From: an uncultured Bacilli bacterium
Lineage (GTDB): Bacteria; Bacillota_I; Bacilli_A; RF39; UBA660
DNA length: 53,947 nucleotides
Assembly: GCA_947629135.1 (NCBI GenBank)
Contig: CANRCN010000002.1
Location: forward strand, 1-53,947
Reading direction: 5' to 3'
The notes under the pieces were generated by a model, which made no database searches, had not been told where the DNA came from, and saw only the letters and a list, made by a program, of their open reading frames with translations. The stretch's first letter is position 1, and each line of letters opens with the position of its first letter. Of the stretch, positions 14,592-52,363 are shown piece after piece. The position numbers and the translations under genes were made by a program.

Positions 14592-15860
14592 ATGAGTAAA
14601 AATAGAAGAAAAAAAAGTAAAAGAAAAATGATGATTAAACCAAGGATACAAACAGGCTTTTGTATATTAAGTGCTATTTTTATTTTAGGATGTTGTATTT
14701 ATTATGGAAGTAGATTAGTTAAATATTATAAAATATATAATCCTAAGTCAGAAACTGGAGAGACTTTGATGACTTTAGCATCATCTATTAGTACTAATAG
14801 TCAAATTGTTTATGAAGGAGATGGATTATATCTTGAAAATGGTAATTATATTTATAAAGGAGAAAAAGTAAACAATTATGTTTTAGTTAATAATATGTTA
14901 TTTAGAATACTTAAGGTTAATTCTGATAAATCAATTGATGTTGTTTTAAATGATTTTATTAATAAAATAGAGTGGGATACGGAATATAAAGTTTATGATA
15001 AATCTAGTATTAAGGAATATATAAATGATAAGTTCTTAAATGTTTTAGATAAAAATATTCTTGAAAAAACAACAGTTTGTAATCCTAAAGTAGATGAATT
15101 ATCAAAGGCAAATTGTAGTGATTATACTAATAATGACTATGTTAGATTGCTTGGAATAAATGATATTTTAACTAGTATGGTTGATAATAAAAGTTATTTA
15201 GTTAAATCTTCTGAATATGTATGGCTTTATAATCAAACAGATTCAAAAATTTGGCATACTAGTGGATATAATATTTCAAATAGTGATGCTTCTAAACGTT
15301 ATGGAGTAAAACCAGTTATAACTTTAAAAAATAATGTTATTTTAGTAAGTGGTGATGGAAAAGAGAATTCACCTTATCGAATAAGTCAAGAAGGAGAAGA
15401 AATAAGTGTTGGAACTTACTTAGATATAAATGATGATATTTATATTGTCTATGAAGTAGGTGATGATTATTATAAAGTTCAAAGTGATAGATTATTAAAT
15501 TCAACAAGAATCTTTGATGAAAGTTCAAATGATTATAGCAAATCTAGTTTAAAAAAATATCTTGAAGGTGAATATTTAAATAGTTTAAAATATGGAGATT
15601 TATTAAAAGAAGTTGATTTTAATGGAGAAACTTCAAAAATTGGAATTTTAAGTAATCAAGATTTTAAGTTTAATAATAATTTAAAAAATTATTTCTTGAG
15701 TGATAAATTAGATAATAATGTATATCTTTACAACGGAAGCCTTGTTTCTAGTCGAGTAAATGTTAAACATGAGGTTCGTCCATGTCTTGGAATTAGTAAA
15801 GATTTAAATATAATGAGTGGCAATGGTTCTAGCATGGCACCATTCATCGTGGAGGTATAG
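14592..15860 (+). CDS. Membrane-anchored extracellular protein with two short copies of the module found in the giant paralogs
   Basis: The protein has a Lys-rich N-terminus and one TM segment. Its two module ends are VKPVITLKNNVILVSGDGKENSPYRI and VRPCLGISKDLNIMSGNGSSMAPFIV, matching the VRPxLYL...GSGT..PY.L module ends of the 17143 and 36699 proteins. Confidence 0.6.
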   Translation: MSKNRRKKSKRKMMIKPRIQTGFCILSAIFILGCCIYYGSRLVKYYKIYNPKSETGETLMTLASSISTNSQIVYEGDGLYLENGNYIYKGEKVNNYVLVNNMLFRILKVNSDKSIDVVLNDFINKIEWDTEYKVYDKSSIKEYINDKFLNVLDKNILEKTTVCNPKVDELSKANCSDYTNNDYVRLLGINDILTSMVDNKSYLVKSSEYVWLYNQTDSKIWHTSGYNISNSDASKRYGVKPVITLKNNVILVSGDGKENSPYRISQEGEEISVGTYLDINDDIYIVYEVGDDYYKVQSDRLLNSTRIFDESSNDYSKSSLKKYLEGEYLNSLKYGDLLKEVDFNGETSKIGILSNQDFKFNNNLKNYFLSDKLDNNVYLYNGSLVSSRVNVKHEVRPCLGISKDLNIMSGNGSSMAPFIVEV

Positions 15861-15861
15861 T

Positions 15862-16872
15862 ATGCGAAAATCAACAATAGTTTTTTTAGTGATTGATATC
15901 TTAGCAATTTTCTGTTTTATCTTATTTTATGGACCTTTTGATACTTTTAGAAATGTATTAGTTAATACAGCTATGGTTACTAAATCACATCAATATATAG
16001 CTTATACTTTTTTTAGCGAAGAAACAGTTCAAAAAATACTTGATTTAAATAAATTTATTCCAATTACAGAAGATGTTAATTTAGATGAGATAAAAATTGA
16101 TACATCTGAAAAAGATACTTATGATAATGAATATGATGAGGCTATTTTAAAAAGAGATAAAGGTAATGATGACTATAAATATTTACAAATAAAAATAGGT
16201 AAACATAAAGCTCATTTAGTTGCAATTTATGATCCTTCCAAAGTAACTTTAATTAGTAGTAAAAAATTTAATACTGGTTCAGGACAAGAAACAGTACTAA
16301 AAATGTGTGAAAGAGTAGGCGGACTAGTATGCATTAATGGAGGAGGTTTTGCTGATCCAGATGGTTGGGGAAGTGATATTCCACTTGGTTATGTTATAAA
16401 AGATGGAGAAGTTATTTGGTCACCTATTACTTCCAAAGAAAACATAATTGGTTTAACAGGAGATAATAAACTATTACTTGCAAATGCAACAGGAGAAGAA
16501 GCTGTTGAGATGGGAATGCGAGATGGACTTCAATTTGGACCTTTCTTAATAGTAAATGGTGAAACTATTAAATATGAAAGTTCAGCAGGTGGTTATGATA
16601 GAGCTGCAAGAGTTGCAATTGCTCAAAGAAAAGATGGAGTAATCTTATTCTTAGTTACTGAAGGTACTCATGGAACTGGACCAACATTAAAAGAAGTAGT
16701 AGATACTTTAGTTTTATATGGAGCTTATAATGCTGCTAATCTTGATGGAGGTACCTCATCTCAAATGGTAGTTGCTGGTAAATTAGTTAATAATCCTAAA
16801 AACGTCTTTGGACAATCAGTTGCTGGAGGACGAAGAGTTGTAACTGGATTTGGATTAATACCTAATAATTAA
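15862..16872 (+). CDS. Phosphodiester glycosidase family (DUF2233 / NAGPA-like) protein with an N-terminal TM anchor
   Basis: ATG 15862 follows GGAGG. The motifs are CINGGGFADPDG, IAQRKDGVILFLVTEG and AANLDGGTSSQM. Confidence 0.75.
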   Translation: MRKSTIVFLVIDILAIFCFILFYGPFDTFRNVLVNTAMVTKSHQYIAYTFFSEETVQKILDLNKFIPITEDVNLDEIKIDTSEKDTYDNEYDEAILKRDKGNDDYKYLQIKIGKHKAHLVAIYDPSKVTLISSKKFNTGSGQETVLKMCERVGGLVCINGGGFADPDGWGSDIPLGYVIKDGEVIWSPITSKENIIGLTGDNKLLLANATGEEAVEMGMRDGLQFGPFLIVNGETIKYESSAGGYDRAARVAIAQRKDGVILFLVTEGTHGTGPTLKEVVDTLVLYGAYNAANLDGGTSSQMVVAGKLVNNPKNVFGQSVAGGRRVVTGFGLIPNN

Positions 16873-16928: not shown

Positions 16929-16977
16929 CTTGATAAATTCTTAATTTATGATATAATATTATTGAAAATAGGAAGGT
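16929..16977 (+). promoter_or_regulatory. Promoter block shared with 36572-36620 (TTGATA, 16 nt, TGATATAAT) plus conserved initial transcribed sequence
   Basis: CTTGATAAATT..(8)..ATGATATAATATTATTGAAAATAG[G/A]AAG is present at both loci. Here the -35 is at 16930-16935 and the -10 at 16952-16957. Confidence 0.55.
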
Positions 16978-17142
16978 TGTGATTACATTGAAAAATAAAG
17001 AAAAACATCAAATAATTAACTTAAATAGCAATGCTAAGCAACAGCTAAATCAACAACTATATATAAGTATAAAGAATCTTGTATTTTAAATACTATGTTT
17101 CTTTATGCTTTTTAATATATTTGCTTGAAAGGAGATGAGCCA

Positions 17143-20064
17143 ATGAAATTAAAGAAAAAAAAGAAAAAAAAGATTATAGCACTATCAGTAACAATTTTAA
17201 TTGTATTTGCTATGTTTGGAATAACTTTTTCACTATGGACTTATTCTAAAAAAATTAAAAATCAATTATTAATTGCAGGAGAGTTGTATATGAGATATAC
17301 ACACTCTAATAGTGTCTTCATTAATAATACTCTTCCAACAAGTGAATATAATCCTGAGAATTTATTTGAATTTACAATAGAAGGGAAAAATACTTATAGT
17401 AAACCAATTTGGTATGAAATAATACTTGAATATGGTGAAACTCCTGCAGATAGAAAAACAAGGATACCAGATAAGTTTTTAAGATTTAGATTAACTGAAC
17501 AAATAGAAGGTGGACAAGAAGAAGTAGTAATTGAAGAAGGAACCTATACTAAAATTAGTAAAGGTCAAAGCATCTGGGTAAATACAATTAATCCAAATGC
17601 TAAAACTGAAAGTAAAATAACTTATAAATTATATGTATGGATATCTGATGAAATAAAAATAGGTGATGTTGATCAAGGAGCAGATATTGATAAAGATACT
17701 TGGGATAATGATGCATTTGCTAGTATTGCAGTAACAGTAAAAGGTGATTTCAAACGAAAAGATTTAGATGAAAATCTTCCAGAATCAGCTGCTGTTAGAG
17801 TTATAAAATCAACTTTAGGTCAAGCAAATGGAATAATTGGAGTGTCAGTAGACGATAAAGGAAATGTAAGCAAAGTAACTGATACTAGTAGTAATACAAT
17901 AAGAGAATATAGATATTCAGGACTAGATGTTAATAACTATGTTTACTTCAATTGTAAAGATGGAGCTACACAAACAACATCAAATTGTGAACTTTGGAGA
18001 ATAATAGGAGTATTCCAAGATGGAGGATATAATAAAATAAAAATAGTTCGCGATAAAGCTTTAGATAATAATTTGTTTCCAGAAACTTATGATTTTGGAG
18101 ATATAACTTATAAAATAAAACTTCCTACAGCTGGTAAAATTGGAGCATATTGGAATGATGTTTCAGAATCAAATGATTGGGCAACAGCAGGAATTCAATA
18201 TTGGCTAAATTCTCAAGGAACAGGAGATAAAGGATATTTAAAATCTTTATCCTATAATGCTCAAAATATGATATCTGATACCAAATATTATTTGGGAAAT
18301 GTAAAATATAGTTCAGCATATATAGATGATACTTCTATATCTGCATATGCCAATGAAAGAGCAGTAACAGGTTGTGCTAATAATAAAGGACCAGCTACTA
18401 ACAATAGTAGAACTAATGTTGAAAATAATAAAAATTGTTTAGTATATGCTAATAATGCGGCAACCTGGATAGGAAAAATAGCATTAATGTATCCAAGTGA
18501 TTATGGATTTTCAGCAGATAGTCAGTATTGGAATACTAACCTAGGAACTGGTGGTTTTGATGGAGATGCATCAGCATCAAGCTGGATATTTAAAGGAGCA
18601 AATCTCACTAGTAGTGAATGGCTTTTAAATGGAAATACTGGAGGAGCAAATTTTATCTCATATTTACGTAATCAGGGACGTATAACTACACAAGGATCTG
18701 AAAATACTCCATTATATATAAGACCAACTTTATATCTTAAATCAGATATATTAATAGATGGAGGAACTGGAACAAAAGCAGATCCATATAAGTTAAAATA
18801 TGATAATATATTTGTAGATTTGAGTGAAGAAAATGGTAGTGTTTTAGTGGATGGAGAAACAACGTTTACAGCAACTACTAATATAAAAGGAACTTTTAAT
18901 GTAACTTCTACTAATTCTCAGAAAGTTAATATAACTACTCAAGGTAGTAATACAAACCAAGTAACGGTAACTATAAAAGGAAAAGAATTAGGAGATGCTG
19001 ATATAAAAGTAGAATTTATACCAACTGATCCGAATTATAAAAGACAAACTAAAACTTATAAAGTAGTAGTAGCAGATAAAGTATTAGCAACTACAGAAAT
19101 TAAATCTCAACTTGGCAAAGGAGGCTTAGTTTCTATAACTCAAAGTAGTGCAGTATCAGCAAGCGATAAAAATGTAATTAGAGAATACAGATATTCTGGT
19201 TTAAATGTAAATAATTATGTTTATTTTAATTGTAAAGATAATCAACCTCAAAGTTCAACAAATTGTGAGAAATGGCGAATACTTGGAGTATTTAAAGATG
19301 AAAAGGGAGAAGATCATATAAAGATTGTACGAAATGAAGTTTTGTCATCAATACCTACTACGTATGAAGCAAATGAAAAAACATTTAACTTAGGTAGTAG
19401 TAGTAATAGTAAGTATAGTAGATGGGATACAGATGTGGACTTTACTAATAATTGGGCAGAAGCAGGATTAATGAATTGGTTAAATTCAAAAGGAACTGTA
19501 AATGGCTACTTGAAAAATTTATCAATCACATCACAGAATATGATTAAAAAAACAAAATATTATTTGGGTACTACATATCCTATTACTGATAAAGTAAAAA
19601 CATCTTATGAAAAAGAAACAGCAATAACTGATTGTGTAAATAATATAGGACCTGAAACAAATACTAGTAAAACTAATATAGAAAAAAATGCAAATTGTCA
19701 AGTGTGGGCAAATAATGCTGCAACATGGGAAGGAGAAATCGCCTTAATGTATCCAAGTGATTATGGATTTAGTGTAGATAGTCAATATTGGGCATCAACA
19801 GAATTATTTAAATATAATACAGAAGCTGCCGCAACTAGTTGGTTATCCAAAGCTAATCATGTAACATCAAGTGAATGGCTTTTGTCCCCATCTGTTTTAA
19901 GTACTAGTTCTAGAGTTGATTTTTGGGCATTAGCTGGTCAAGTTTCTAGTTCGGAATCAAGCACTTATAATTACTTTGTTAGACCTGCTCTTTATCTAAA
20001 TTCAGATATTAATATTACTGGTGGCTCTGGAACGGATGCAAGTCCATATCAATTATCGATGTAA
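17143..20064 (+). CDS. Giant modular surface protein, paralog A (N-domain, module, Ig-like domain, module)
   Basis: ATG 17143 follows AAAGGAGA. The protein has a K-run and a single hydrophobic segment, followed by Cys-containing modules (see the repeat features) and a terminator. Confidence 0.8.
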   Translation: MKLKKKKKKKIIALSVTILIVFAMFGITFSLWTYSKKIKNQLLIAGELYMRYTHSNSVFINNTLPTSEYNPENLFEFTIEGKNTYSKPIWYEIILEYGETPADRKTRIPDKFLRFRLTEQIEGGQEEVVIEEGTYTKISKGQSIWVNTINPNAKTESKITYKLYVWISDEIKIGDVDQGADIDKDTWDNDAFASIAVTVKGDFKRKDLDENLPESAAVRVIKSTLGQANGIIGVSVDDKGNVSKVTDTSSNTIREYRYSGLDVNNYVYFNCKDGATQTTSNCELWRIIGVFQDGGYNKIKIVRDKALDNNLFPETYDFGDITYKIKLPTAGKIGAYWNDVSESNDWATAGIQYWLNSQGTGDKGYLKSLSYNAQNMISDTKYYLGNVKYSSAYIDDTSISAYANERAVTGCANNKGPATNNSRTNVENNKNCLVYANNAATWIGKIALMYPSDYGFSADSQYWNTNLGTGGFDGDASASSWIFKGANLTSSEWLLNGNTGGANFISYLRNQGRITTQGSENTPLYIRPTLYLKSDILIDGGTGTKADPYKLKYDNIFVDLSEENGSVLVDGETTFTATTNIKGTFNVTSTNSQKVNITTQGSNTNQVTVTIKGKELGDADIKVEFIPTDPNYKRQTKTYKVVVADKVLATTEIKSQLGKGGLVSITQSSAVSASDKNVIREYRYSGLNVNNYVYFNCKDNQPQSSTNCEKWRILGVFKDEKGEDHIKIVRNEVLSSIPTTYEANEKTFNLGSSSNSKYSRWDTDVDFTNNWAEAGLMNWLNSKGTVNGYLKNLSITSQNMIKKTKYYLGTTYPITDKVKTSYEKETAITDCVNNIGPETNTSKTNIEKNANCQVWANNAATWEGEIALMYPSDYGFSVDSQYWASTELFKYNTEAAATSWLSKANHVTSSEWLLSPSVLSTSSRVDFWALAGQVSSSESSTYNYFVRPALYLNSDINITGGSGTDASPYQLSM
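17788..18800 (+). repeat. Intragenic module A1 (about 335 aa), boundaries approximate
   Basis: The module starts near AAVRVIKSTLGQANGIIGV, contains IREYRYSGLDVNNYVYFNCKD (REYRYSG begins at 17902), and ends with IRPTLYLKSDILIDGGTGTKADPYKL. Confidence 0.6.
19078..20061 (+). repeat. Intragenic module A2, boundaries approximate
   Basis: The module runs from VLATTEIKSQLGKGGLVS through IREYRYSGLNVNNYVYFNCKD (19180) to VRPALYLNSDINITGGSGTDASPYQL. Confidence 0.6.
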
Positions 20065-20188: not shown

Positions 20189-20217
20189 TTGACTTTTAAT
20201 GATAAATATGATATAAT
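20189..20217 (+). promoter_or_regulatory. Sigma-A-type promoter
   Basis: TTGACT, a 17-nt spacer, then TATAAT with an upstream TG. The track's TTG start codon is actually this -35 element. Confidence 0.5.
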
Positions 20218-20245
20218 CTATCAATGTCAAAGGGGGATTGTTGAT

Positions 20246-22201
20246 ATGAGAAGTAGTTTAGTTCATGAAATAATAGGTAGAATTTATGAAACAAGGTTTG
20301 TAGATAGTTTTAAAGAAGAATTAATGAGAGGGTCTTTTTTTAGAAAAATTGATGAAAGGTTATTAGAAAAAATAGTTGAACTAGATGATTATGATTTTAA
20401 ATATTATTTAAGTTTTTTATATGGAATATATAAAAAGAATAATAATATAATGATTTATTATGATAAATTAGCTAAAATTACTAAACTTATGCTTTCTAAA
20501 TTAGGAAGTATAAATGTAAGTGCTCTTGTTGATATATTGGTTAATACTAATTTAATAAATAAAGAATATATTGTTGAATTTGCAAATATGTTATTACGTA
20601 TTAAAGAAATTAAAAAAGTAGATACAATAGTTGATATGGTATATGATCAAGAAATAGAAGATAGAAATTTTGATATACTTATTAAGTCTTTATTGTATTT
20701 TGATACTAATTATGGAAGAGAGTTTATAATTGGTCTTTTAAATAATAAAAAGATGGTTATTAATGAAGTTGAATTAAAAGGTGCTTTAAGTTTTTTAAAT
20801 AAAACTCAAGAGGAATATAAATTAGTTGCTTTTTATAAATTATTTGTTTTAGGTGAGTTAAAAGACATTAGTTTATATTCAGAATATGGTATGTTAATTA
20901 AAAATGCTTTATTAAAAGCTAATAATCAAGAACAATTAAATACTATTGTTAAATTGAGTGTAGTTTTAAAAACTTCAAGATTTAGAAATAGTATTGTTAA
21001 ACAAATAATTAATTGTAATAATATATATGCATTGAGGGAATATGAAGAATTGGTTAAAATGCCTAAGATATTAAATGATAATAATATAATAGATATAATG
21101 GAAAAAATAAATAGGATTAAAAATGATATACAAGGTACTGTTATTAGTAATTTATTAAGTATTAATCCTAATAATATATTATTATTAATTGATGAAGTTA
21201 TAAAGAAAGAACATATTAAATTATTATATATAACAACTTATCTTGAAAAGCTTGAAACTAATAATTTGTTATATTTACTTAATGATATAGATTTATTTGG
21301 AATGGTATTAGATTTTAAAGATGGTTATAAGTATGATTTTTTAATGAAGGTATTAAATCATCAAGAATTTATAATGAGTAAGAAAAATAGAGAGGTTATT
21401 AAAGATTTCTTTAAAGTAAAAGAAGAATATAAGTATATTGCTTTTTATAAATATATAAAAGATAATGCTAATGATAAAGAATTTACTTTAGATAGTAATA
21501 GTTCTAGAAATGTTATTACTTTATTAAAAGAAACTAAAAAGAAATTTCAAGCTAATGCTGTAGTTAGAATTAGTAATTTATCTAAAAAATTTAAGTTTAA
21601 TGATAATATTCTTATTAAGGCAGCTTTTGTTAAAGATGAAATGACTGGTATTTTATTAGGTGATCTTATAGAAAGTGGTATTTCAGAAGATGAAAGATTT
21701 AATGATATATTATCTAATTTTGAAAAATGTGAAGTTTCTATAGCTTCAGTTGGTATGATTGAGCTTGCTAAAAATATGAGATTAAGAAGTTCTAAGTTTT
21801 TGTTAGGTTATTTCATGATTATGAAAAGATTGAAAAAAATTAATCAAGTTGGGGTATTACTTGATATACTTGAGAAATATCCTGATTTAGATGAATATGA
21901 ATTATTTAAGTATTGTGAGAAAATTATGTTTGTTACTAATACTAAATTATTATTAATCATAGAAAGATTAATTCTTAATAATAAGAAGATAAATAAAGAA
22001 ACTATGGATTTATGTTTAGATATTAATGGTAATAGTAGTTATGAAAATATTAAGTTTATTAAAGAATATTTAAGATTAAATGGTATGGGTGATATATTAG
22101 GAGAAGATGAAGTAGATATTGAAGAAGTAATATATATGTTAAATAGACAAAAGTCTTTTGATTTAAATCCTAATAGTGTCTTGGTTTATAAGAAAAATTA
22201 G
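20246..22201 (+). CDS. Hypothetical helical repeat protein (about 651 aa), apparently cytoplasmic
   Basis: ATG 20246 follows AAAGGGGGA. There are no hydrophobic segments. An internal repeat is visible (..EEYKLVAFYKLF.. and ..EEYKYIAFYKYI.. about 204 aa apart). Confidence 0.6.
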   Translation: MRSSLVHEIIGRIYETRFVDSFKEELMRGSFFRKIDERLLEKIVELDDYDFKYYLSFLYGIYKKNNNIMIYYDKLAKITKLMLSKLGSINVSALVDILVNTNLINKEYIVEFANMLLRIKEIKKVDTIVDMVYDQEIEDRNFDILIKSLLYFDTNYGREFIIGLLNNKKMVINEVELKGALSFLNKTQEEYKLVAFYKLFVLGELKDISLYSEYGMLIKNALLKANNQEQLNTIVKLSVVLKTSRFRNSIVKQIINCNNIYALREYEELVKMPKILNDNNIIDIMEKINRIKNDIQGTVISNLLSINPNNILLLIDEVIKKEHIKLLYITTYLEKLETNNLLYLLNDIDLFGMVLDFKDGYKYDFLMKVLNHQEFIMSKKNREVIKDFFKVKEEYKYIAFYKYIKDNANDKEFTLDSNSSRNVITLLKETKKKFQANAVVRISNLSKKFKFNDNILIKAAFVKDEMTGILLGDLIESGISEDERFNDILSNFEKCEVSIASVGMIELAKNMRLRSSKFLLGYFMIMKRLKKINQVGVLLDILEKYPDLDEYELFKYCEKIMFVTNTKLLLIIERLILNNKKINKETMDLCLDINGNSSYENIKFIKEYLRLNGMGDILGEDEVDIEEVIYMLNRQKSFDLNPNSVLVYKKN

Positions 22202-24300: not shown

Positions 24301-24970
24301 TATGAGAAGAAAAAAGAATAAAAAGAAAAAGTTAATTAAAATTTTAACTATCTTAATCTTGCTAGGAGGACTTGCCAGCTATATCTTTTTGATGCGGGTT
24401 AAAAACATTTATATAGTTGGAAATAAATTATTAACTGATCAAGAAATAATAGAATTAGCTGGTCTTGAAAATTATCCAAAGCTATTTAAAAATTCAAGTT
24501 TTAGTATGGAAAATAAAATTAAAGTTAATTCATATATTGAAAGTGTTGATGTTAAAAAAGATTTATTTGGAGCAGTTACTATTAATGTTTGCGAGTATAA
24601 TTTACTTTTAAAAAATGATCTTGATAATATGATGTATTTATCAAATTCTAAAACTTTACCAATTGATAATGAGATTGTTGGAATACCAACTTTGATAAAT
24701 TCAATTCCTAAAGATATTTTAAATGCTTTCTTGAAAAAACTTGATAAAATTGATAAAGATATATTAAGTCAAATATCAGAAATTAAATATGAACCAAATG
24801 AGTATGATAAAGATTTATTCTTATTTTATATGGTAGATGGTAATTATGTTTATATAACAACAACGAGATTAAATAATATTAATAAATATGATGAGGCTTT
24901 AAAAGTCTTAGAAGGAAAGAAAGGTATCTTGTATCTTGATAGTGGAAATCATTTTCAAGTACTAGAATAA
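24293..24970 (+). CDS. divIB: Cell-division protein DivIB/FtsQ-like (TM segment plus POTRA)
   Basis: The protein has a K-rich N-terminus, one TM segment and the POTRA-like VKNIYIVGNKLLTDQEIIELAGL, and sits in the usual position after murB. Confidence 0.7.
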   Translation: MINMRRKKNKKKKLIKILTILILLGGLASYIFLMRVKNIYIVGNKLLTDQEIIELAGLENYPKLFKNSSFSMENKIKVNSYIESVDVKKDLFGAVTINVCEYNLLLKNDLDNMMYLSNSKTLPIDNEIVGIPTLINSIPKDILNAFLKKLDKIDKDILSQISEIKYEPNEYDKDLFLFYMVDGNYVYITTTRLNNINKYDEALKVLEGKKGILYLDSGNHFQVLE

Positions 24971-25170
24971 TCTTTCTTTTTTTGATATAATATCTATAAA
25001 GGTAGATGATTAGGATGTATGATATAAGTTTAGATAACTTTCAAGGTCCTATGGATTTATTAAATCATTTTCAAGTACTAGAATAATATCTTTTTTTTTG
25101 ATATAATAGAAAAGGTGATTAAGATGTATGATATAAGTCTAGATAACTTTCAAGGTCCTATGGATTTATT
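24946..25170. repeat. Tandem duplication (two units of about 116 and 109 bp) spanning the divIB 3' end, the intergenic promoter and the scpA 5' end
   Basis: AAATCATTTTCAAGTACTAGAATAA occurs at about 24946 and again at about 25062. ATGTATGATATAAGT[T/C]TAGATAACTTTCAAGGTCCTATGGATTTATT occurs at 25015 and again at 25124. The centre of the unit has diverged. Confidence 0.85.
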
Positions 25171-25828
25171 ACTTCATTTAATTAAAAAAAAGAAAATGAA
25201 TATCTTAGATATTAAGTTAGAAATAATAATTGATGAGTATTTAAATTATATAAGACACATGGAAGAGATGAATTTAAATGTTGCTAGTAGTTATTTAGTC
25301 ATGGCTTCTGAATTAATAGAAATAAAGTCAAGGATGTTGTTGCCTGGAAGTGAAACAGAAGATGAAGAAGAAGATCCAAAAGAAAATTTAGTTAATCGAT
25401 TAATTGAATATGAAAAATATAAAAATATGGTTCCAATCTTTAGAGAACTTGAAGAAGAAAGAAATAATTATAAAACTAAGAGTCCAACTAGTATATTAGA
25501 ATATAAAGAAGAAAAAAATTATACAAGTGAACTTACAATGGAAGATTTAGTTGCAGCTTACAAGAAATTTTTACAAAGATTAGAAGATGAAAAGCCTATT
25601 ACAACTAAAGTAACCAAAAAAGAAATATCAGTTGATGATCAAATAAAAAGTATTAGAGAAAAATTTAAAGTAAATAAAAAAATGAATTTTTTTGATTTAT
25701 TTGATGTTTATGCTAAAGATTATGTAATTGCAACTTTCTTAGCAATTCTTGAAATGTCTTCTAAAAGGGAGATTAGAATTATGCAAGAAGCAAATTTTGA
25801 TAATATTATAGTAGAGGTAGTAGAATGA
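25124..25828 (+). CDS. scpA: Segregation and condensation protein A
   Basis: The N-terminus is MYDISLDNFQGPMDLLLHLIKKKKMNILDI. I prefer ATG 25124, which follows AAAAGGTGA, over the track's GTG at 25115. Confidence 0.85.
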   Translation: MYDISLDNFQGPMDLLLHLIKKKKMNILDIKLEIIIDEYLNYIRHMEEMNLNVASSYLVMASELIEIKSRMLLPGSETEDEEEDPKENLVNRLIEYEKYKNMVPIFRELEEERNNYKTKSPTSILEYKEEKNYTSELTMEDLVAAYKKFLQRLEDEKPITTKVTKKEISVDDQIKSIREKFKVNKKMNFFDLFDVYAKDYVIATFLAILEMSSKREIRIMQEANFDNIIVEVVE

Positions 25829-29716: not shown

Positions 29717-29928
29717 AAGTATTTCCAAAAAGCAAAAAATCTGATATGATTAACTCATGATAAAGGAAGTATGTGAGTTATGAAGAAAGTTAATAATTTG
29801 TCAACAATGGGTGGGCTTATTAGATACAATTAAACTATAATTAATATATAATAAAATAAACTATAAGCACAAAAAGTTTAGTATTTTTAATGCTAGATTT
29901 CTTTATGCTTTTTTAATGGGAGACAATC

Positions 29929-30050
29929 ATGAATAATCAAAAAAAATATTGATAATGGTAGTAGTCTTAAGTTTAATACTAATATTATCATCAAGTTATG
30001 CTCTTTTAAGAAGTTCAAAAATAAGTAAAAATAATTTAGAAAAACGTTAA
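29929..30050 (+). pseudogene. Frameshifted N-terminal remnant of a third giant-surface-protein paralog
   Basis: ATG AAT AAT CAA is followed by an A8 run (29939-29946) and then a stop. Adding one A gives MNNQKKILIMVVVLSLILILSSSYALLRSSKISKNNLEKR*, which matches the signal/TM plus TYAIL.YSK...NQL motif of the paralogs. The upstream TTTCTTTATGCTTTTTTAAT matches 17098-17117. Confidence 0.4.
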
Positions 30051-30942: not shown

Positions 30943-31156
30943 AGAATAGTTTTAAAAACTATCTGAAAATATAATTAATAATGTTTTAAAAAGGTGAAAA
31001 ATTTCATCTTTTTATATTCTTTAAATTCATACAAAAGAAAGAAAAAAATAATTTTATAAAATCGTTAAAATTGGAATTAGAAAAAACAAATCTTTAAATT
31101 TTTAATTTACAAGAAAAAAAACTTATTATATAATAGAAGTATAATTGAGGTGGCTT

Positions 31157-31639
31157 ATGAATAAAAATGGGTTTACGACAATTGAACTTTTATTAACGAT
31201 GATTTTAGTAGTTATTGTTATGTCAACGATTACAAGTGTTACATATGTTTATCGTGATAGAAGTGATTATGAAGAAGTTTTAACTGAGGTAATTAATTAT
31301 AAAAATAATGTAACTAAAGTTATCTATGACGATATATTAACTACTACAACATCTGATAAAATTACATCTATGAGTAAAGTAGATAATAAAAATTATACTT
31401 TGAGGTCATCAAGTAAAACTTATTCTTTAACAGTAATAGATGAACTTAATAAAAAAGGAATTGCTTATGGAGAAAGTGGAGGAGTAATTGAATATATTAT
31501 TCCAGGTTCTGAAGATGGTTTAGTTGATATAAATGGAGTAGATTTTCCAACTCCTGCAAATGGTGTTTATACATTTGAATTATATTTTCATCATCGAATG
31601 TTAGATAAAACTTTTAAAATAAAATTTACAATTTCATAA
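31157..31639 (+). CDS. Prepilin-type N-terminal cleavage/methylation domain protein (type IV pilin / pseudopilin-like)
   Basis: ATG 31157 follows GAGGTGG. The N-terminus MNKNG/FTTIELLLTMILVVIVMS has the G-F..IE class III signal with Glu at +5. Confidence 0.7.
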   Translation: MNKNGFTTIELLLTMILVVIVMSTITSVTYVYRDRSDYEEVLTEVINYKNNVTKVIYDDILTTTTSDKITSMSKVDNKNYTLRSSSKTYSLTVIDELNKKGIAYGESGGVIEYIIPGSEDGLVDINGVDFPTPANGVYTFELYFHHRMLDKTFKIKFTIS

Positions 31640-36571: not shown

Positions 36572-36620
36572 CTTGATAAATTAGCGATTCATGATATAAT
36601 ATTATTGAAAATAGAAAGAG
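36572..36620 (+). promoter_or_regulatory. Promoter block shared with 16929-16977
   Basis: The -35 is TTGATA (36573-36578), then 16 nt, then TGATATAAT (-10 at 36595-36600), followed by ATTATTGAAAATAGAAAG. Confidence 0.55.
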
Positions 36621-36698: not shown

Positions 36699-39600
36699 AT
36701 GATCGAAGTCATGAAAAAGAGAAATAAGACTATAATAATATCAATAATGGTTGCTTTGTTATTAGTACTAATAACTAGTGTAACTTATGCAATATTGGTA
36801 TATTCCAAATCTGGGACTAATCAATTGTTAGTTGCTGGAGATGTATATTTAAAATATACTGAAGGTGTTGATACAATTAATATTGTAAATGCAATGCCTG
36901 CTTCAACTTACAATGAAGAAGAGTTTTTTGAATTTACAATTGAGGGAAAAAATACATTTACGAAACCTATTTATTATGAAATAGTAATAAGTCATGGAGA
37001 TGAATTAGAGGATAGACATACTAGAATCCCAGATGAATTTTTAAGCTTTAGATTGACTGAACAATTACCAGGAGGAGAAGAAACTGAAGTAATCCAAGAA
37101 GGAAATTATTCTGATTTTGCAAGTGGAAAAAGTATATGGGTAAATACAGTTGCTGCAGGTCAAAAAGAAAATACAAAAGTAACATATAAATTATATATGT
37201 GGGTATCAGATGAAATGCATCTAGGCTCAGGAGATGATGTAAGTATATCTGATATGGATATGGAAAAGTGGGCTAAAGATGCATATGCTAGTGTGAAAGT
37301 AACAGTCGATGGTGATTTTAATGTAAAACATGCATCTCTTAGAGCAGTTGAAAAAATTAAATCAAGTATAGGAACATTTGGAGGAGTAACTGCTGTTGTT
37401 GAAAAAGAAGATTCAGTTGAAGCAGTAACTGAAAAGAAAAAAGATATAAATGCAAGAGAATATAGATTTTCTGGAAACATTTTAAATAATCATGTTTACT
37501 TTAATTGTAAAGCTTCAACTACTTATATGAATGCCAAAGAAAATTGCGAAATTTGGAGGATAATTGGAGTATTTAAAGATGAAAAAGGAAAAGAACATAT
37601 AAAATTAGTAAGAAATGAAAAATTGCTTTCTAGTGCATATCCAACTACTTACACCTCAAATGGTGAAACCTTTTCTATTAAAGGCAATACTAATAATACA
37701 GCTTATTGGGATCAAATTCCATATAGAACCGCTTTTAATAATTGGGAAGATTCAGGACTTAAACATTGGTTAAATTCTGATGGAGAAGAAGGTGGATATT
37801 ATAATTCTTTATCAGAGACATCTAAAAATATGATAGAAGATGCAACATATTATTTAGGAAATGTTACAGGATCAGATTCAGCTTATACTGAATATAAAAA
37901 TGAAAGAAACCAAACATTATGCCCAGAAAATGTTAAAAGCCTTTCTGATCAAAGTAATTGTTATGTTTGGTATGGTAATTCACCTACTTGGACGGGAAAA
38001 ATTTCATTAATGCAGTTAAGTGATTATTTATTTGCTTTTGATAGTAGTTCTTGGAATTCAGTACCAGAAGAAGGGTATTCATCAATAAAAAGTCAAAATT
38101 GGTTAAATGTTGCACGTGTATCATCCGAATGGCTTTTATCTCCAACTCATAACAAAAATTCAGCAGTATCTGTAATATTTTCTTCTAGTAATTTGAATTG
38201 GTTAGATGCAGTGAATTCTTCAGAAGTACGACCTGTTGTTACTTTAAAATCAAGTGTTTTATTTTCTAATGGTAACGGAAGTAGTGCTGATCCATATTTA
38301 TTTGAAGATGATACTATATATGAGAAAGCAAGTGCTGTAACAACAATAAAAAATACTTTAGGTCAATCAGGTGGTATAATAGGAGTAACTAATAACAATG
38401 CTAAAACTACTTCACTAAGTGATGAAATAAGAGAATATAGATATTCTGGATTAAATGTAAATAATTATATATATTTTAATTGTAAAGATAATAATCTACA
38501 AAGTAGCGATAATTGTGAAGTTTGGAGAATTTTAGGTATATTTAAAGATGAAAAAGGTGATGAACATTTAAAAATAGTTTATAATAATGTTCTATCACGA
38601 TCAACAGAAAATATGCCTGCCTTAACATATTTAGTTAATGGAAAAGTTCTTAATCTTAAAAGTGATCTTAATTTAGTTACTTTTTATTGGGATAAGCTTA
38701 ATAATTCTAATGATTGGTCTACAGCAGTTATACAATATTGGTTAAATTCTAAAGGAAGTTTAGAAGATGGGTTTTTTAGATCATTAAGTATAAATTCTCA
38801 AAATATGATTGCAGATACAAAATATTATTTAGGTAGTTTAACATCAGCTTCAAACGTTTATATAGATGATACTCCAGCACAAGCTTATAAATATGAAAGA
38901 GCTGTAAGTGGATGTATTGATAATAAAGGACTTGAAAAAAACACTAGTAAAGATAATATAATAAGTAGTGAAACATGTCGAGTATGGGCTAACAAAGCTG
39001 CAAGTTGGACAGGAAAAATAGGACTAATGTATCCATCAGATTATGGATTTTCAGCAGATAGTCAATATTGGAATACAAAATTAGGAAAAGGTTTTTTTGA
39101 AGGAACACCAGCTAGTACAAGTTGGATATATACAAATGCTAATTTTAAAAGCCAGGAATGGTTATTAAATCCTAATACTGCAGGAAATGAATATGCTACA
39201 ATTTTACGTGAAGGTCGAGTTTCTAATATGACATCAAATGATGCAAAAAGTGCGAGACCAACTGCCTATCTAAAAAAAGATGTTGTTATTTCATCTGGCT
39301 CTGGTAGTGCTACGGATCCTTATCAATTAGCATATGAAAAATCAAATTTAGTATTAACTAGTTTAAATGGAAAGATTCCTGTTAATGGAGAAATAACCTT
39401 TACTGCAAGAGACATTGTTGGTGGTGTTTATAGTGTAAGTACCCTTGATGAAAATATAGCTCAAGCAACTGCAAAAATTAATAATGGTAATTCAACACCA
39501 ATTACAGTAAAGGGGTTAAAGCCAGGTACGACTAGTATAAAAGTAACTCATACTCCTGCTAATAAAGTTTATGATGTTCAAACAGCTTATTATACTATAA

Positions 39601-40598
39601 CAATAACAAATGAAGGTTATGCTACTGATACTATAAAAGCAACACTTGGAAAAGAGAAAGGAATAATAGGTGTAACTAGAGCAAATACAAAAGTAACTAT
39701 TCAAGATGATAGCATAAGAGAATATAGATATTCAGGTGCAAATGTAAACAATTATGTTTATTTCAATTGTAAAGATAATGAAGAACAAAATAAAGAAAAT
39801 TGTGAAACTTGGAGAATAATCGGAATCTTCAGGGATGATAATAAAGTAGAAACTATAAAAATAACAAGAAACGATGTTATATCTGTAGATCAATTTCCTG
39901 AAAAATATACATATGAAGATGAAGACTACTTAGTAAAAGGACATTTTAATGATGAAAGAGCTTATTGGAATGGAAAAGAGAATACCAGAAGTAGTGATTG
40001 GAGCAAGGCCAGCTTAAACTACTGGTTAAATTCTGCAGGATCAGATGTTGGATATTTGAAAACCTTATCAGGTACTTCTCAAAAAATGATAGCTAAAACC
40101 AAATATCGATTAGGACTTTTTCAAACTAATATGAGTGCTGGAGTTTCCTATAGACTAGAACGAGGTGGTTTGAGTTGTAGTAGTGATACATCTTGTAATC
40201 CAGGATATGTTTGGAAAGGGAATTCAGCAACATGGGAAGGAGAAATCGCATTGATGTATCCAAGCGATGTAGGGTTTAGTTTTGATAGCAGTTATTGGAA
40301 TACTAAAGCTTTATATGATTATTATCTTGAAGATATTCAGAAAAGTGGATGGATGAAAGAAATGTTTGATAAAATAGCTGATAGAGGAGAATGGCTATTA
40401 TCTCCATCTACAAATGCTTCAGATAAAATTGGAATTCTTGATCCAAATAAAAGAATATCTTTGGAATCTGGTGTTGTTAGTATTAGATCAACTGAAGGAC
40501 TTGCTGATGTAAGACCAACTCTACATTTAGTACCAACAGTTAAGATAATAAATGGTATTGGCTCAGCTGAAGATCCTTATCAATTAGAATTAAAATAA
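36699..40598 (+). CDS. Giant modular surface protein, paralog B (N-domain, 2 modules, Ig-like domain, module)
   Basis: The gene has an AGGAGG RBS. Its N-terminal roughly 200 aa are collinear with paralog A. REY[RF][YF]SG motifs begin at 37455, 38430 and 39717, and a terminator follows. Confidence 0.8.
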   Translation: MIEVMKKRNKTIIISIMVALLLVLITSVTYAILVYSKSGTNQLLVAGDVYLKYTEGVDTINIVNAMPASTYNEEEFFEFTIEGKNTFTKPIYYEIVISHGDELEDRHTRIPDEFLSFRLTEQLPGGEETEVIQEGNYSDFASGKSIWVNTVAAGQKENTKVTYKLYMWVSDEMHLGSGDDVSISDMDMEKWAKDAYASVKVTVDGDFNVKHASLRAVEKIKSSIGTFGGVTAVVEKEDSVEAVTEKKKDINAREYRFSGNILNNHVYFNCKASTTYMNAKENCEIWRIIGVFKDEKGKEHIKLVRNEKLLSSAYPTTYTSNGETFSIKGNTNNTAYWDQIPYRTAFNNWEDSGLKHWLNSDGEEGGYYNSLSETSKNMIEDATYYLGNVTGSDSAYTEYKNERNQTLCPENVKSLSDQSNCYVWYGNSPTWTGKISLMQLSDYLFAFDSSSWNSVPEEGYSSIKSQNWLNVARVSSEWLLSPTHNKNSAVSVIFSSSNLNWLDAVNSSEVRPVVTLKSSVLFSNGNGSSADPYLFEDDTIYEKASAVTTIKNTLGQSGGIIGVTNNNAKTTSLSDEIREYRYSGLNVNNYIYFNCKDNNLQSSDNCEVWRILGIFKDEKGDEHLKIVYNNVLSRSTENMPALTYLVNGKVLNLKSDLNLVTFYWDKLNNSNDWSTAVIQYWLNSKGSLEDGFFRSLSINSQNMIADTKYYLGSLTSASNVYIDDTPAQAYKYERAVSGCIDNKGLEKNTSKDNIISSETCRVWANKAASWTGKIGLMYPSDYGFSADSQYWNTKLGKGFFEGTPASTSWIYTNANFKSQEWLLNPNTAGNEYATILREGRVSNMTSNDAKSARPTAYLKKDVVISSGSGSATDPYQLAYEKSNLVLTSLNGKIPVNGEITFTARDIVGGVYSVSTLDENIAQATAKINNGNSTPITVKGLKPGTTSIKVTHTPANKVYDVQTAYYTITITNEGYATDTIKATLGKEKGIIGVTRANTKVTIQDDSIREYRYSGANVNNYVYFNCKDNEEQNKENCETWRIIGIFRDDNKVETIKITRNDVISVDQFPEKYTYEDEDYLVKGHFNDERAYWNGKENTRSSDWSKASLNYWLNSAGSDVGYLKTLSGTSQKMIAKTKYRLGLFQTNMSAGVSYRLERGGLSCSSDTSCNPGYVWKGNSATWEGEIALMYPSDVGFSFDSSYWNTKALYDYYLEDIQKSGWMKEMFDKIADRGEWLLSPSTNASDKIGILDPNKRISLESGVVSIRSTEGLADVRPTLHLVPTVKIINGIGSAEDPYQLELK
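37332..38327 (+). repeat. Intragenic module B1, boundaries approximate
   Basis: The module runs from ASLRAVEKIKSSIGTFGGV through AREYRFSGNILNNHVYFNCKA to VRPVVTLKSSVLFSNGNGSSADPYLF. Confidence 0.55.
38328..39338 (+). repeat. Intragenic module B2, boundaries approximate
   Basis: The module runs from ASAVTTIKNTLGQSGGIIGV through IREYRYSGLNVNNYIYFNCKD to ARPTAYLKKDVVISSGSGSATDPYQL. Confidence 0.6.
39615..40595 (+). repeat. Intragenic module B3, boundaries approximate
   Basis: The module runs from GYATDTIKATLGKEKGIIGV through IREYRYSGANVNNYVYFNCKD to VRPTLHLVPTVKIINGIGSAEDPYQL. Confidence 0.6.
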
Positions 40599-43486: not shown

Positions 43487-45556
43487 ATGTATACTGATTA
43501 TACAGATGAAGATAATAGCGAATATAATGAGTATTATAATGATGAAAATGGAGGAAATAACGTTGATAAAGAAAAAATAAAGAAAATAGCTTTTTTTGTT
43601 ATTGCCTTTGTTATACTAGTTGTGATAATAATAGTGATTGCTAAAGGATGTTCAAATAAAAAGCAACAATCAAATGTTAATCCTAATTCAAATCAAACCC
43701 CTTCTATTGTATTAAGTAGAGAGAGTTACTCGCTTGAAGAAGAAGAAGAGGTTGAGATTTATGCTGATATTTTAGCATCATCAGTTACAAATCCAATTGT
43801 TGGATGGCAAACAGAAGATAGTACAGTTGCAACCGTTGAAGATACAGGAGATGGAAATGCTGTTATAAAAGGTATTAAAGAAGGAAAAACAGCAATAGTT
43901 GCAGTTTATCGTGAAAATGGTAAAGTATATACAAATAGATGTGAAATAACAGTAACTTCAAAAACAATTGAAGCAACAAATATTGATATAGTTCAATCAA
44001 ATATAACGTTAGCTAAGGGTAAAGATATATTATTACAAATAAAAATAACACCTAGTGATGCTAAGGTTGATGCATTTGAATTTTCAAGTGATAACTCTAA
44101 TATTGCAAGTGTAGACGAAGATGGAAGAGTATATGCACTTAGAGCAGGAACTACAACAATTACTGCTAAAACGACAGATGGAAAATTAAGTGATTCTATG
44201 ACAGTAACAGTTGTAGATAATACTTCAACTCCTACTGTAATTAATCCAACTGGAGTTCAGTTAATGGGATTATCTAATGGATTGAAGGTTGGTGGTACTG
44301 CTGATATTAAATATTCAATTTTACCTACAAATGCAACAAATAAACAATTAACTTGGAAGAGTTCAAATACAGCTATTGCAACAGTTGATTCTAATGGTAA
44401 AGTAAAAGGAATTAAAGCTGGAAAAGTTACAATTACAGCAACTACAACTAATGGAATAACTGGAAGTATTGATGTAACAGTTGAATCAAATACAGTTGCA
44501 GTAACTGGAATTACAGTAAATGGAGATACTGCTTTAACAGTTAAGGTTGGAACAGTTAAACTTATCTCTTATACAATAAGTCCTTCAAATGCTACTAATA
44601 AAAAAGTTAAGTTCTCATCAAATAATTCAAGTGTTGTAACAGTTAACTCAAATGGAATGATAGGAGCATTAAAAGCAGGAACTGCTGTTATAAGTATTAC
44701 AACAGAAGATGGAAATAAAACAGCAAATATAACCGTAACCGTTACGGGAAATGGAACAATTTCAGGCTCTACTACTTCAAATACTGGAGATAGTATCCCA
44801 GATGGTAATGGAGGTTCATCAAGTGATAGTAGTTCATCTGGAACTACAACGGAAGATAGTTCATCATCTTCCAGTGCATCATGTACTGCATCATTGATGA
44901 CCAACATAACGCACAATGGGTCGGGGGCAATAATTTCACAATATAGCTTTGGCCAGGCCAAAGCTTTTCAAAATATGGGAGCAACTAAACCGATTATAAC
45001 TGTTAAAGAAATAGAGGATTGTATTAATAAAAATAAATTAACATATCAAATTTATCATGGAACAACAGAGTCAAATATATCAACTACTTCTTATACAGGA
45101 ACAGTTAGTTTAAAAACTACAGGTACAAAAATTACTTTAAATAAAGGCGATGGTTACTATAAAGTAGTAATCAAAGGTTATTTAAAAGATAATAGTAGTA
45201 AATATCTTACAAAAACTTACTATGCAATAGTAAAAAATAATGATGGTACAGACACTATTAAACCATATATAAATTCATTAAGTGTTTCTAAAACATCATC
45301 TACAAAGTTATTGGTTAATGCATATGTAAATGAAACTGGTTCAGGATTAAAAAATATTAAATATTGTTTAACAGCAACCACATCATGTACACCAAATGTA
45401 ATTCTTTATAGTTGGACATCTAATTATCCAAAAAGTAATAATACTTCAAGATCTTCAACTATAACAAATGCAAGTTTAGGAGCTTATAAAAGAATTTGTG
45501 TTATGGCAACAGATGTTGCTGGTAATGAATCTGCTTCAAAATGTTATGCTTATTAA
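43487..45556 (+). CDS. Membrane-anchored surface protein with about 5 Big_2 (bacterial Ig-like) repeats, a Ser-rich linker and a C-terminal domain
   Basis: The protein has an acidic N-terminal tail and one TM segment. The pattern W.S.[DN]..[IV]A[TS]VD..G.V.[AG][IL][KR]AG..TIT[AV] recurs, and there is an SSSDSSSSGTTTEDSSSSSS linker. Confidence 0.7.
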   Translation: MYTDYTDEDNSEYNEYYNDENGGNNVDKEKIKKIAFFVIAFVILVVIIIVIAKGCSNKKQQSNVNPNSNQTPSIVLSRESYSLEEEEEVEIYADILASSVTNPIVGWQTEDSTVATVEDTGDGNAVIKGIKEGKTAIVAVYRENGKVYTNRCEITVTSKTIEATNIDIVQSNITLAKGKDILLQIKITPSDAKVDAFEFSSDNSNIASVDEDGRVYALRAGTTTITAKTTDGKLSDSMTVTVVDNTSTPTVINPTGVQLMGLSNGLKVGGTADIKYSILPTNATNKQLTWKSSNTAIATVDSNGKVKGIKAGKVTITATTTNGITGSIDVTVESNTVAVTGITVNGDTALTVKVGTVKLISYTISPSNATNKKVKFSSNNSSVVTVNSNGMIGALKAGTAVISITTEDGNKTANITVTVTGNGTISGSTTSNTGDSIPDGNGGSSSDSSSSGTTTEDSSSSSSASCTASLMTNITHNGSGAIISQYSFGQAKAFQNMGATKPIITVKEIEDCINKNKLTYQIYHGTTESNISTTSYTGTVSLKTTGTKITLNKGDGYYKVVIKGYLKDNSSKYLTKTYYAIVKNNDGTDTIKPYINSLSVSKTSSTKLLVNAYVNETGSGLKNIKYCLTATTSCTPNVILYSWTSNYPKSNNTSRSSTITNASLGAYKRICVMATDVAGNESASKCYAY

Positions 45557-46551: not shown

Positions 46552-47523
46552 ATGAAACTAAAAGGAATGAAATTTATAGATTTGTTTGCTGGTATAGGTG
46601 GATTTAGATATACACTTGAATCTTTTGGTTGTAAGTGTGTTTTTTCATCTGAATTAGATAAATATTGTCAGCAAAGCTATAAATTAAATTTTGGAGAAAT
46701 TCCATCTGGTGATATAACTAAAATTGATGAACATAAAATTCCAAACTTTGATATATTATGTGCTGGTTTTCCATGTCAGCCTTTCAGCATTTCTGGTAAG
46801 CAAAAAGGATTTGAAGATACTAGAGGAACCTTATTTTTTGATATTGTAAGAATAGTTAGTTATCATAAACCCAAAATTATATTTTTAGAAAATGTAAAAA
46901 ACTTAAAATCTCATAATAGGGGAGAAACTTTTAAAATTATTTCTAAGACACTTAATAGTTTAAACTATAATATTTATTCTAAGATACTTAATGCAAAAGA
47001 TTTTAAACTTCCTCAAAATAGAGAGAGAATAACTATTATATGTATAAGAAAAGATATAGATAATGGTAAGTATAAATTCCCTATACCATTTAAAGATTTT
47101 GTAACTATAAGTGATATAAAAGAAGATGACTTTTTTACTGAAAAGTATATATTAAATAGAAATGATATACACATTGATGAAGAAAAATTAAAAGAAGCAA
47201 TAAAAAATGGTAAGGTTCAAAAACCAATTCAAATTGGAATTATAGGTAATGGTGGTCAAGGAAATAGAATTTATCATGAAAATGGAATAGGAATAACTTT
47301 ATCTGCTTCAAGTGGTGGTGCTGCTTCTAAAACGGGAGCTTATTATATAAATGGAAAAGTTAGAAAATTAAGTCCTAGAGAAGCAGCAAGACTGCAAGGA
47401 TTTCCTGAAAATTTTAAAATAATAGAAAATGAGAATCAAGCTTTAAAACAATTTGGCAATAGTGTTCCAATTAATTTATTAAAAGAAGTATTTCGGGGTT
47501 TAGAAGATATTATGGAGGATTAA
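46552..47523 (+). CDS. DNA (cytosine-5)-methyltransferase, M.HhaI-like (probable GCGC specificity)
   Basis: The motifs are FIDLFAGIGGFR (I), GFPCQPFSISGKQKGFEDTRGTLFFD (IV), ENVKNL (VI), QNRERI (VIII) and QFGNSVPIN (X). The target-recognition region GNGGQGNRIYHENGIGITLSASSGGAASKTGAYYINGKVRKLSPRE closely parallels M.HhaI as I remember it. Confidence 0.9.
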   Translation: MKLKGMKFIDLFAGIGGFRYTLESFGCKCVFSSELDKYCQQSYKLNFGEIPSGDITKIDEHKIPNFDILCAGFPCQPFSISGKQKGFEDTRGTLFFDIVRIVSYHKPKIIFLENVKNLKSHNRGETFKIISKTLNSLNYNIYSKILNAKDFKLPQNRERITIICIRKDIDNGKYKFPIPFKDFVTISDIKEDDFFTEKYILNRNDIHIDEEKLKEAIKNGKVQKPIQIGIIGNGGQGNRIYHENGIGITLSASSGGAASKTGAYYINGKVRKLSPREAARLQGFPENFKIIENENQALKQFGNSVPINLLKEVFRGLEDIMED

Positions 47524-47524
47524 A

Positions 47525-48358: not shown

Positions 48359-48444
48359 ATAATAAGAAGTGTAATATGAAATACTTAATTGAGGTATGAT
48401 GAATTTGACAAAATGTTGATTTTATGGTACTATCTAGTTAATAA

Positions 48445-48640: not shown

Positions 48641-48668
48641 TAATAACAATTAAAGAAAGGATGTATAT

Positions 48669-52358: not shown

Positions 52359-52363
52359 AATAG

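Follow-up and report, generated by a model that had tools for sequence, protein, structure and literature searches.

Domains of the DUF6273 family are widespread in gut Firmicutes and in their phages, and no ligand of these domains is experimentally known. One of them forms the N-terminal domain of an IgA peptidase (IgAse, ThomasA; PDB entry 9QA6) of Thomasclavelia ramosa, a gut Firmicute belonging to the Erysipelotrichales. This domain, which is annotated as DUF6273 (PMC12402451), possesses a C-type-lectin-like core with large irregular segments, is about twice the usual size and lacks the canonical disulfides (PMC12237041). It is present in a single copy, contains a structural zinc site and no disulfides, and is part of a sortase-anchored metallopeptidase. 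In gut phages, DUF6273 has been described as a receptor-binding domain whose C-terminal variable region is diversified by diversity-generating retroelements (DGRs) (PMC10743442, PMC11792537, bioRxiv 10.1101/2024.10.15.618418). The respective proteins ("tentaclins" of Faecalibacterium and other gut phages) are virion proteins combining a C-type-lectin-like head with immunoglobulin-like (Ig-like) domains and C-terminal variability (PMC10743442, PMC11792537). Here, contig CANRCN010000002.1 of an uncultured Bacilli bacterium (assembly GCA_947629135.1; RF39, UBA660) was analyzed. Within this stretch of 53,947 nucleotides (nt), henceforth called the window, two genes (paralogs A and B) encode proteins with tandem modules related to DUF6273, which is here the main repeated cargo of a large, quickly reshuffled chromosomal family in uncultured Bacilli living with hosts.

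On balance, A and B are probably exported, multivalent lectin-like proteins, likely adhesins. Their genes are part of an extensive, fast-diverging gene family that recombines in uncultured gut Bacilli. Both resemble the IgA peptidase in the oversized lectin-like core of the module but differ from it by the two- to threefold repetition of the domain, by two cysteine pairs and by the lack of an enzyme domain and a sortase signal. What separates them from the phage proteins is their chromosomal location, putative export signals, a different N-terminal domain (N-domain) and the absence of a DGR nearby; their diversity seems to originate from paralogy and domain reshuffling. Proteins of this kind are known already, albeit with a putative function, and the tandem enlarged modules together with the N-domain are the new details. 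The findings fill an annotation gap and do not overturn current ideas.

Architecture of A and B and nature of the module

The two genes and the parts of their products, given in amino acids (aa), are as follows; they were assigned with custom hidden Markov models (HMMs) and an AlphaFold2 (AF2) model, whose confidence is given as predicted local distance difference test (pLDDT).

17143-20064, plus strand: coding sequence of paralog A, 973 aa (open reading frame and translation)
17143-17247, plus strand: A, aa 1-35, Lys-rich N-terminus and single hydrophobic segment (Kyte-Doolittle)
17248-17757, plus strand: A, aa 36-205, N-domain, predicted beta-sandwich (AF2 model)
17779-18798, plus strand: A, aa 213-552, module 1 (custom HMM, E 2e-112; AF2 blocks with pLDDT ~81-97)
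18799-19071, plus strand: A, aa 553-643, linker of ~90 aa, beta-rich, paired by custom HMM with the linker of B
19072-20061, plus strand: A, aa 644-973, module 2 (custom HMM, E 2e-107)
36699-40598, plus strand: coding sequence of paralog B, 1299 aa
Within B, plus strand (HMMs): N-domain, aa 5-212; modules, aa 216-536, 546-879 and 975-1298; probable Ig-like linker, aa 879-968

The reading frame of A is open from a TTG at 17125 to 20064. Since a ribosome-binding site (AGGAG, 17130-17134) is located 8 nt upstream of the ATG at 17143, this position is likely the true start, as had been assumed in the initial annotation, which was made from the sequence alone. The common plan of A and B proposed there was confirmed by the open reading frames (ORFs), the motifs, an identity of 41-43% over the whole lengths and the domain order determined with HMMs built from homologues. 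This order is N-domain, module, probable Ig-like linker and module in A, and N-domain, two modules, probable Ig-like linker and a third module in B; each domain scored with E values of 1e-47 to 1e-112. Modules 1 and 2 of A, with the linker between them, are collinear with modules 2 and 3 of B. With 973 and 1299 aa, the proteins have ordinary adhesin sizes and are not "giant".

The modules, two in A and three in B, comprise ~325-340 aa and contain the previously listed motifs with slight variants, e.g. AREYRFSG... in module 1 of B and SQLGKGGLVSIT in module 2 of A. Module 1 of B matched the Pfam family DUF6273 (PF19789) with 36.5 bits (E 5.8e-9), the gathering score being 23.5. For A, a precomputed match to PF19789.7 is on record, while the modules of A and modules 2 and 3 of B gave no match to the local PF19789.6, even at E<=10. 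The Pfam model spans approximately the module states 113-305, i.e. the C-terminal ~55%.

A more comprehensive relationship was suggested by an AF2 model of A residues 1-553, calculated from an alignment of 42 homologues (mean pLDDT 85.4). In a Foldseek search of the PDB, the top match of this model was the IgA peptidase 9QA6 (E 6e-9, 329 columns, probability 1.00, 14% identity). The match was placed on its N-terminal DUF6273 domain (A31-A321), because no other described domain of 9QA6 is DUF6273 or lectin-like. Against the predicted viral structures of BFVD, seven "DUF6273 domain-containing" proteins were among the top 25 matches (probability 0.91-1.00), and tail fibres were found as well. By contrast, PDB sequence searches with A, a five-module profile and a 42-sequence profile of N-domain plus module yielded nothing significant. 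As these searches missed the IgA peptidase, the tie between module and peptidase is structural only. From the model, the complete ~330-aa module, beyond its tail, is predicted to be a divergent DUF6273 domain of increased size that adopts a C-type-lectin-like fold. The initial annotation had been right in pointing to DUF6273 but had restricted the likeness to the tail and regarded the family as impossible to place; the Pfam match of module 1 of B and the 9QA6 match show that a placement is feasible.

The module is, judged by its motifs and cysteines, not a canonical C-type lectin. The Ca2+/carbohydrate motifs EPN and QPD, which canonical domains combine with WND in a long loop, are absent from A, B and their distant relative C (described below); WND occurs once in A (aa 337) and not in B. 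According to the definition of Zelensky and Gready, canonical C-type lectin-like domains have two or three conserved long-range disulfides tethering the core. The cysteines of the modules, exactly four in every module of A and B, are spaced at short range instead (C-x10-12-C and C-x5-20-C) and are dispensable. In 91 full modules of relatives, the first pair was complete in 31 and missing in 60, with no single cysteine in any of them; the second was complete in 64 and missing in 17, and ten modules retained its first cysteine alone. Both pairs were missing in 12 of the 91. Thus, cysteines are present or absent mostly as pairs, which supports the paired cysteines noted initially, fits two loop-closing disulfides and argues against a four-cysteine metal site.

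All-against-all comparison of the five modules of A and B revealed identities of 38-52% (49% between modules 1 and 2 of A), indicating that they are old and distinct. Across the 91 modules, entropy peaks in two blocks of the C-terminal third (HMM states 241-250 and 271-290), which lie between EWLLSP and VRP. This region is the C-terminal part of DUF6273, where gut phages have their hypervariable receptor-binding region (PMC11792537, bioRxiv 10.1101/2024.10.15.618418). On the other hand, charged residues including E255, R257, E283, R286, E405, R406 and D453 are invariant across the 42 homologues.

The linker had been called Big_2-type. However, the linker of A did not match Big_2 (PF02368), its top Pfam matches being weak ones to beta-sandwich families (E 0.006-0.03), and the similarity to a genuine Big_2 repeat of the ORF at 43487-45556 was weak (BLASTP, E 0.009). 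It is therefore described here only as probably Ig-like.

Export and the N-domain

A contains a single hydrophobic segment (aa 8-35, Kyte-Doolittle >1.6), which is preceded by eight Lys or Arg residues, and B likewise has only one, at the N-terminus and behind Lys or Arg residues. The segment ends with a motif shared by the family, G-x-[ST]-[YF]-A-x-[FW], in shorter form [ST]-[YF]-[AS]. Neither A nor B possesses an LPXTG-type motif or a C-terminal hydrophobic tail; the proteins end with ...PYQLSM and ...PYQLELK, respectively, directly after the last module. A single N-terminal segment of this kind, with no C-terminal tail, suggests that most of each protein would be extracellular, with the segment acting as a Sec signal peptide or else as a membrane anchor at the N-terminus. 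Together with the cysteines, which are gained and lost as pairs, this supports the exported, surface-type family envisaged before.

The N-domain comprises ~170 aa, and its motifs reported initially are present in both A and B. Modelled alone (AF2, pLDDT 84.5), it is predicted to be an all-beta sandwich after a long N-terminal helix. No match was obtained in Pfam or NCBIfam, nor in the PDB by sequence profile, and Foldseek against the PDB gave nothing below E 1e-3, with template modelling scores under 0.4. The generic beta-sandwich likenesses (Bd1399, Eph ligand-binding domains, carbohydrate-binding modules, pilins) all lay in this range and were rejected. An isopeptide or pilin idea based on weak DUF7601 matches (PMC12617251) was abandoned as well, the candidate Lys not being kept in a larger alignment.

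While a word-indexed search had given only three matches, an exhaustive profile search over 1.84 billion cluster representatives detected the N-domain in 4215 of them at E<=1e-3 and in 375 at E<=1e-30. Among the matches listed, it begins within the first ~60 residues and is occasionally doubled. For 78 of the top-scoring proteins, the domains following the N-domain were BspA-type leucine-rich repeats (LRR_5; 36), Flg_new (11), DUF285 (8), DUF6273 (5) and other types of leucine-rich repeats. Due to its N-terminal position and the varied binding-type partners, it is likely that the N-domain is a common handle and the DUF6273 module one interchangeable cargo. Surface proteins of Firmicutes and Mollicutes with BspA-type LRR_5, Flg_new or DUF285 thus share both the N-terminal hydrophobic segment and the N-domain with A and B. 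They are presumed surface binders forming multigene families, but their cargo is a leucine-rich or beta-repeat and not a lectin-like module. The N-domain deserves description as a new domain family, since it marks thousands of putative surface proteins annotated as "hypothetical".

A handle of this type might also be part of a fibre. In that case, the N-domain would be distantly related to TasA/camelysin, carry a SipW-type signal and, once this is cleaved, polymerise by donor-strand exchange, so that A and B would be subunits of adhesive fibres bearing lectin-like heads. TasA has a comparable layout, an N-terminal signal ending with a G-x-T-x-A-like motif and a beta-sandwich directly behind it, and the motif at the end of the hydrophobic segment resembles the TasA signal. 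One variant N-domain homologue (P0034) approached the cut-offs of Peptidase_M73 (18.6 versus 22.5 bits) and TIGR04088 (17.6 versus 19), another (P0363) showed a faint match, and alignment of A-type with P0363-type N-termini by hhalign yielded E 1.7e-7 over 108 columns. However, after removal of the signal segment this value dropped to E 1.8e-3 with a probability of 15%. A and B themselves match neither Peptidase_M73 (PF12389) nor TIGR04088, the 50 best Foldseek matches of the N-domain do not include TasA, and TasA has no C-terminal lectin modules. Moreover, no sipW was found among the scanned ORFs of the window, five ORFs of 100-135 aa having been left out. Fibre subunits are hence an unlikely explanation. 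The same low probability is given to the more general idea that the N-domain is a new display system, possibly a very distant TasA-like strand-exchange polymer with interchangeable heads (LRR, Flg_new, DUF285, DUF6273), with A and B as lectin-tipped fibre or stalk subunits. If it were true, the family would be a recombination-driven, DGR-independent counterpart of the receptor-binding diversification in phages.

The gene family and the proposed function

Relatives of A and B were identified by an alignment-based pattern scan using one genome per species; a single-protein scan of the same contigs found none. At least 555 relatives were detected in genome contigs, nearly all from uncultured Bacilli, Erysipelotrichaceae or Mycoplasmatota-labelled metagenome-assembled genomes (MAGs). 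The sample labels refer to guts of rabbits, humans, ruminants and birds, where "Lapin" was taken by us to mean rabbit. By contrast, 2.9 million viral contigs contained just one distant relative. As a separate observation, the BFVD protein A0A8S5RFF4 (541 aa, "virus sp. ctQmo6") aligned to the entire model of N-domain plus module (572 columns, E 1.8e-8). This entry may represent either a bacterial member of the family whose contig was classified as viral, or an uncommon copy carried by a phage.

For the comparison of loci and architectures, 80 loci were retained. Single MAGs hold up to 12 ORFs with family domains in varied architectures, which stand singly or in tandem amid housekeeping genes. 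Thus, two or three copies in 54 kb are normal for the lineage, and the location in a core region is not as unusual as had been thought. The supposed third member of the window is C, which is related but distant. The slot of B, between a VanY-like gene and der, is empty in one related locus (L061), and in another (L014) two ORFs with sizes typical of the family (585 and 563 aa) precede a family member located ~5 kb 3' of scpB. The flanking proteins MurB, FtsQ, ScpA/B and Der are 80-91% identical to their counterparts in the same MAGs; the nearest relative of A is 52% identical. Overall, neighbouring housekeeping proteins show identities of 74-91%, as compared to ~52% at most for family members. 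In some pairs of relatives, the N-domains are 93% identical and the modules 43-45%; other pairs share modules of ~50% identity on unrelated N-domains. Judged by these values, the histories of N-domain and module are discordant. That such proteins are common corresponds to one half of what the initial annotation had named as an argument against its view, but they are annotated as "hypothetical protein", and the module matches a solved domain, not a functionally characterised one. Its statement that the family has no characterised function still stands.

In another gut lineage (L083-L085, 10001-13929), a 465-aa protein with a different N-terminal beta domain (faint camelysin-type match) and one DUF6273-like module was observed. 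Its gene is located directly 5' of a SpaA-type pilin gene and a sortase gene.

In the explanation preferred here, the Lys-rich, hydrophobic N-terminus would carry A and B across the membrane via Sec and then either remain as an anchor or be cleaved off. The adjoining beta-sandwich of the N-domain would serve as a shared handle or stalk, followed by one Ig-like spacer and two (A) or three (B) enlarged DUF6273 heads, each head binding a ligand. As the heads diverge from each other to the extent given above, binding might be multivalent and probably multi-specific, with glycans or proteins from the host, from food or from other microbes as ligands. At the level of the family, new combinations of handles and heads and the fast divergence of the heads would equip each genome with a set of different binding specificities. 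Provided that the modules are lectins, the family is probably a major determinant of gut attachment, and phages or host immunity are likely to target it. Binding-site residues may be picked with the solved IgA peptidase domain as a template.

Several points weigh against this explanation. After cleavage of the signal, the proteins would lack any recognisable wall anchor and could be merely secreted. The invariant charged residues could point to a single conserved ligand or even to a catalytic site instead of varied specificity, and disulfides are unusual in strict anaerobes. The link to the IgA peptidase consists of one predicted structure and shared Pfam membership, the aligned part of 9QA6 not being reported. 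IgA cleavage does not require the DUF6273 domain of this enzyme, to which no function has been assigned (PMC12237041). Consequently, receptor binding by phages, which is itself inferred, is the sole functional precedent.

The tandem copies, two or three per protein, could alternatively anchor the protein to the own wall polymer, as SLH, CWB2 and LysM repeats do, leaving the N-domain as the functional part. The invariant charged and aromatic residues suggesting a single conserved ligand would agree with such a role, and so would the wall-related neighbours (a NAGPA-type glycosidase gene, murG, murB and a VanY-like gene). However, DUF6273 is positioned in the IgA peptidase at the end remote from the sortase anchor, and in phages it acts as a receptor binder (PMC12237041, PMC10743442). 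Furthermore, the N-domain adjoins the membrane segment and bears other binding cargos (leucine-rich repeats, Flg_new) instead of the modules. The commonest full-length form of the family, with ~550 aa, consists of the N-domain and a single module, so that anchoring of this kind is doubtful.

The C-type-lectin fold is also found in formylglycine-generating enzymes. An enlarged module might therefore hide a catalytic site, e.g. for the modification of glycans or peptides, and the invariant cluster of E, R, D, Y and W residues across the 42 homologues (REYRYSG, E.WRI, Y..ER, PSDYG) would be in line with this. Since no match to an enzyme family was found in Pfam, NCBIfam or the PDB, and tandem copies of the same domain are atypical of enzymes, this is still less probable than wall anchoring.

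A further explanation is that the modules are diversified by a retroelement or are remnants of prophage tail fibres or receptor-binding proteins. In gut phages, DGRs frequently target DUF6273 (PMC10743442, PMC11792537), and the Foldseek matches include phage DUF6273 and tail-fibre proteins. However, a scan of 43 larger ORFs of the window revealed no reverse transcriptase, and the window contains no repeat of the template/variable type; its direct repeats are paralogous coding DNA with 60-82% identity. A and B are situated among core genes, without phage genes. For the window, this explanation is largely refuted, and it is given a very low probability. Equally improbable are spore coat or exosporium proteins, for which gpr in the window and the cysteines of A and B might speak, since coat proteins made in the mother cell are not expected to have N-terminal export segments, the promoter-like sites look housekeeping-type with an extended -10 and the N-domain is combined with domains known from vegetative surface adhesins.

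Genomic context and further observations

The window has a G+C content of ~25% and contains mostly housekeeping genes (M23/PcsB-type peptidase, murG, murB, ftsQ, scpA/B, gpr, der, hisS-type). As it encodes the germination protease Gpr, the organism probably sporulates. The following features are located close to A and B.

14592-15860, plus strand: distant relative C, 422 aa, with an N-terminal transmembrane segment and two compact DUF6273-like domains
15817-16872: gene of a membrane-anchored NAGPA-type phosphodiester glycosidase (PF09992, E 9e-36), its start overlapped by C over 44 nt
16930-16957, plus strand: promoter-like site of A, TTGATA, 16 nt, TG-TATAAT, extended -10 (11 of 12 matches, top-scoring in the region)
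36573-36600, plus strand: promoter-like site of B, homologous to that of A and best of its region

C is the sole further relative of A and B within the window. It scored 23.3 bits (E 6.4e-5) with Pfam DUF6273, just under the gathering score of 23.5, and was matched by the custom module HMM by the module tail alone (E 4e-8). C and the glycosidase gene look like an operon directly 5' of A.

Upstream of A, a stretch of 75 nt (16929-17003, repeat family D14) is 77% identical to a stretch 5' of B, both containing the promoter-like sites listed above. This homology suggests that the duplication behind A and B took along the promoter, provided that the two sites, which were predicted from the sequence, act as such. 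The common element was not found in the 80 related loci. An invertible promoter was considered and rejected, since there are just short AT-rich inverted repeats that are not conserved between A and B.

A short remnant resembling the N-terminus of the family (KKILIMVVVLSLILILSSSYALLRSSK...) is located at 29862-30050; it is out of frame with its ATG past an A-run and ends with a stop after ~40 codons. The 52-nt leader upstream of it is 81% identical to the leader just 5' of A (17062-17113). The remnant looks like a decayed family member. Directly 3' of A, an ORF at 20189-22201 (plus strand) encodes a protein of 670 aa with a helical, cytoplasmic look, in which no hydrophobic segment was seen by eye and for which Pfam, NCBIfam and the 80 related loci gave no match. 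As a strong promoter-like site overlaps the listed TTG of this ORF, its true start is probably further downstream.

Elsewhere in the window, a 164-aa ORF at 31145-31639 (plus strand), without a Pfam match, has a prepilin-type N-terminus (MNKNGFTTIELLLTMILVVIV...) similar to type IV pilins or competence pseudopilins. A near-perfect tandem duplication at 24946-25179 (93-94% identity, period ~110-116 nt) spans a promoter-like region and the first codons of scpA, so that a truncated second copy of the scpA start lies just 5' of the real gene. The ORF at 43487-45556 (plus strand) encodes a presumed surface protein of 689 aa that contains four Big_2 domains (E 5e-40). Identity to the counterpart in L061 is only 50%, compared to 82% for the neighbouring Der. 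Finally, a cluster resembling restriction-modification or defence systems extends from 46552 to 53431. It comprises a C5 cytosine methylase (46552-47523) with a neighbour of unassigned kind and a second C5 methylase (50207-51307), which is accompanied by an HpaII-type endonuclease (51285-52358). The remaining part consists of a DUF3800 protein (52524-53363) and, next to it, a DUF3800-VIII RNA on the minus strand (53364-53431, 58.5 bits).

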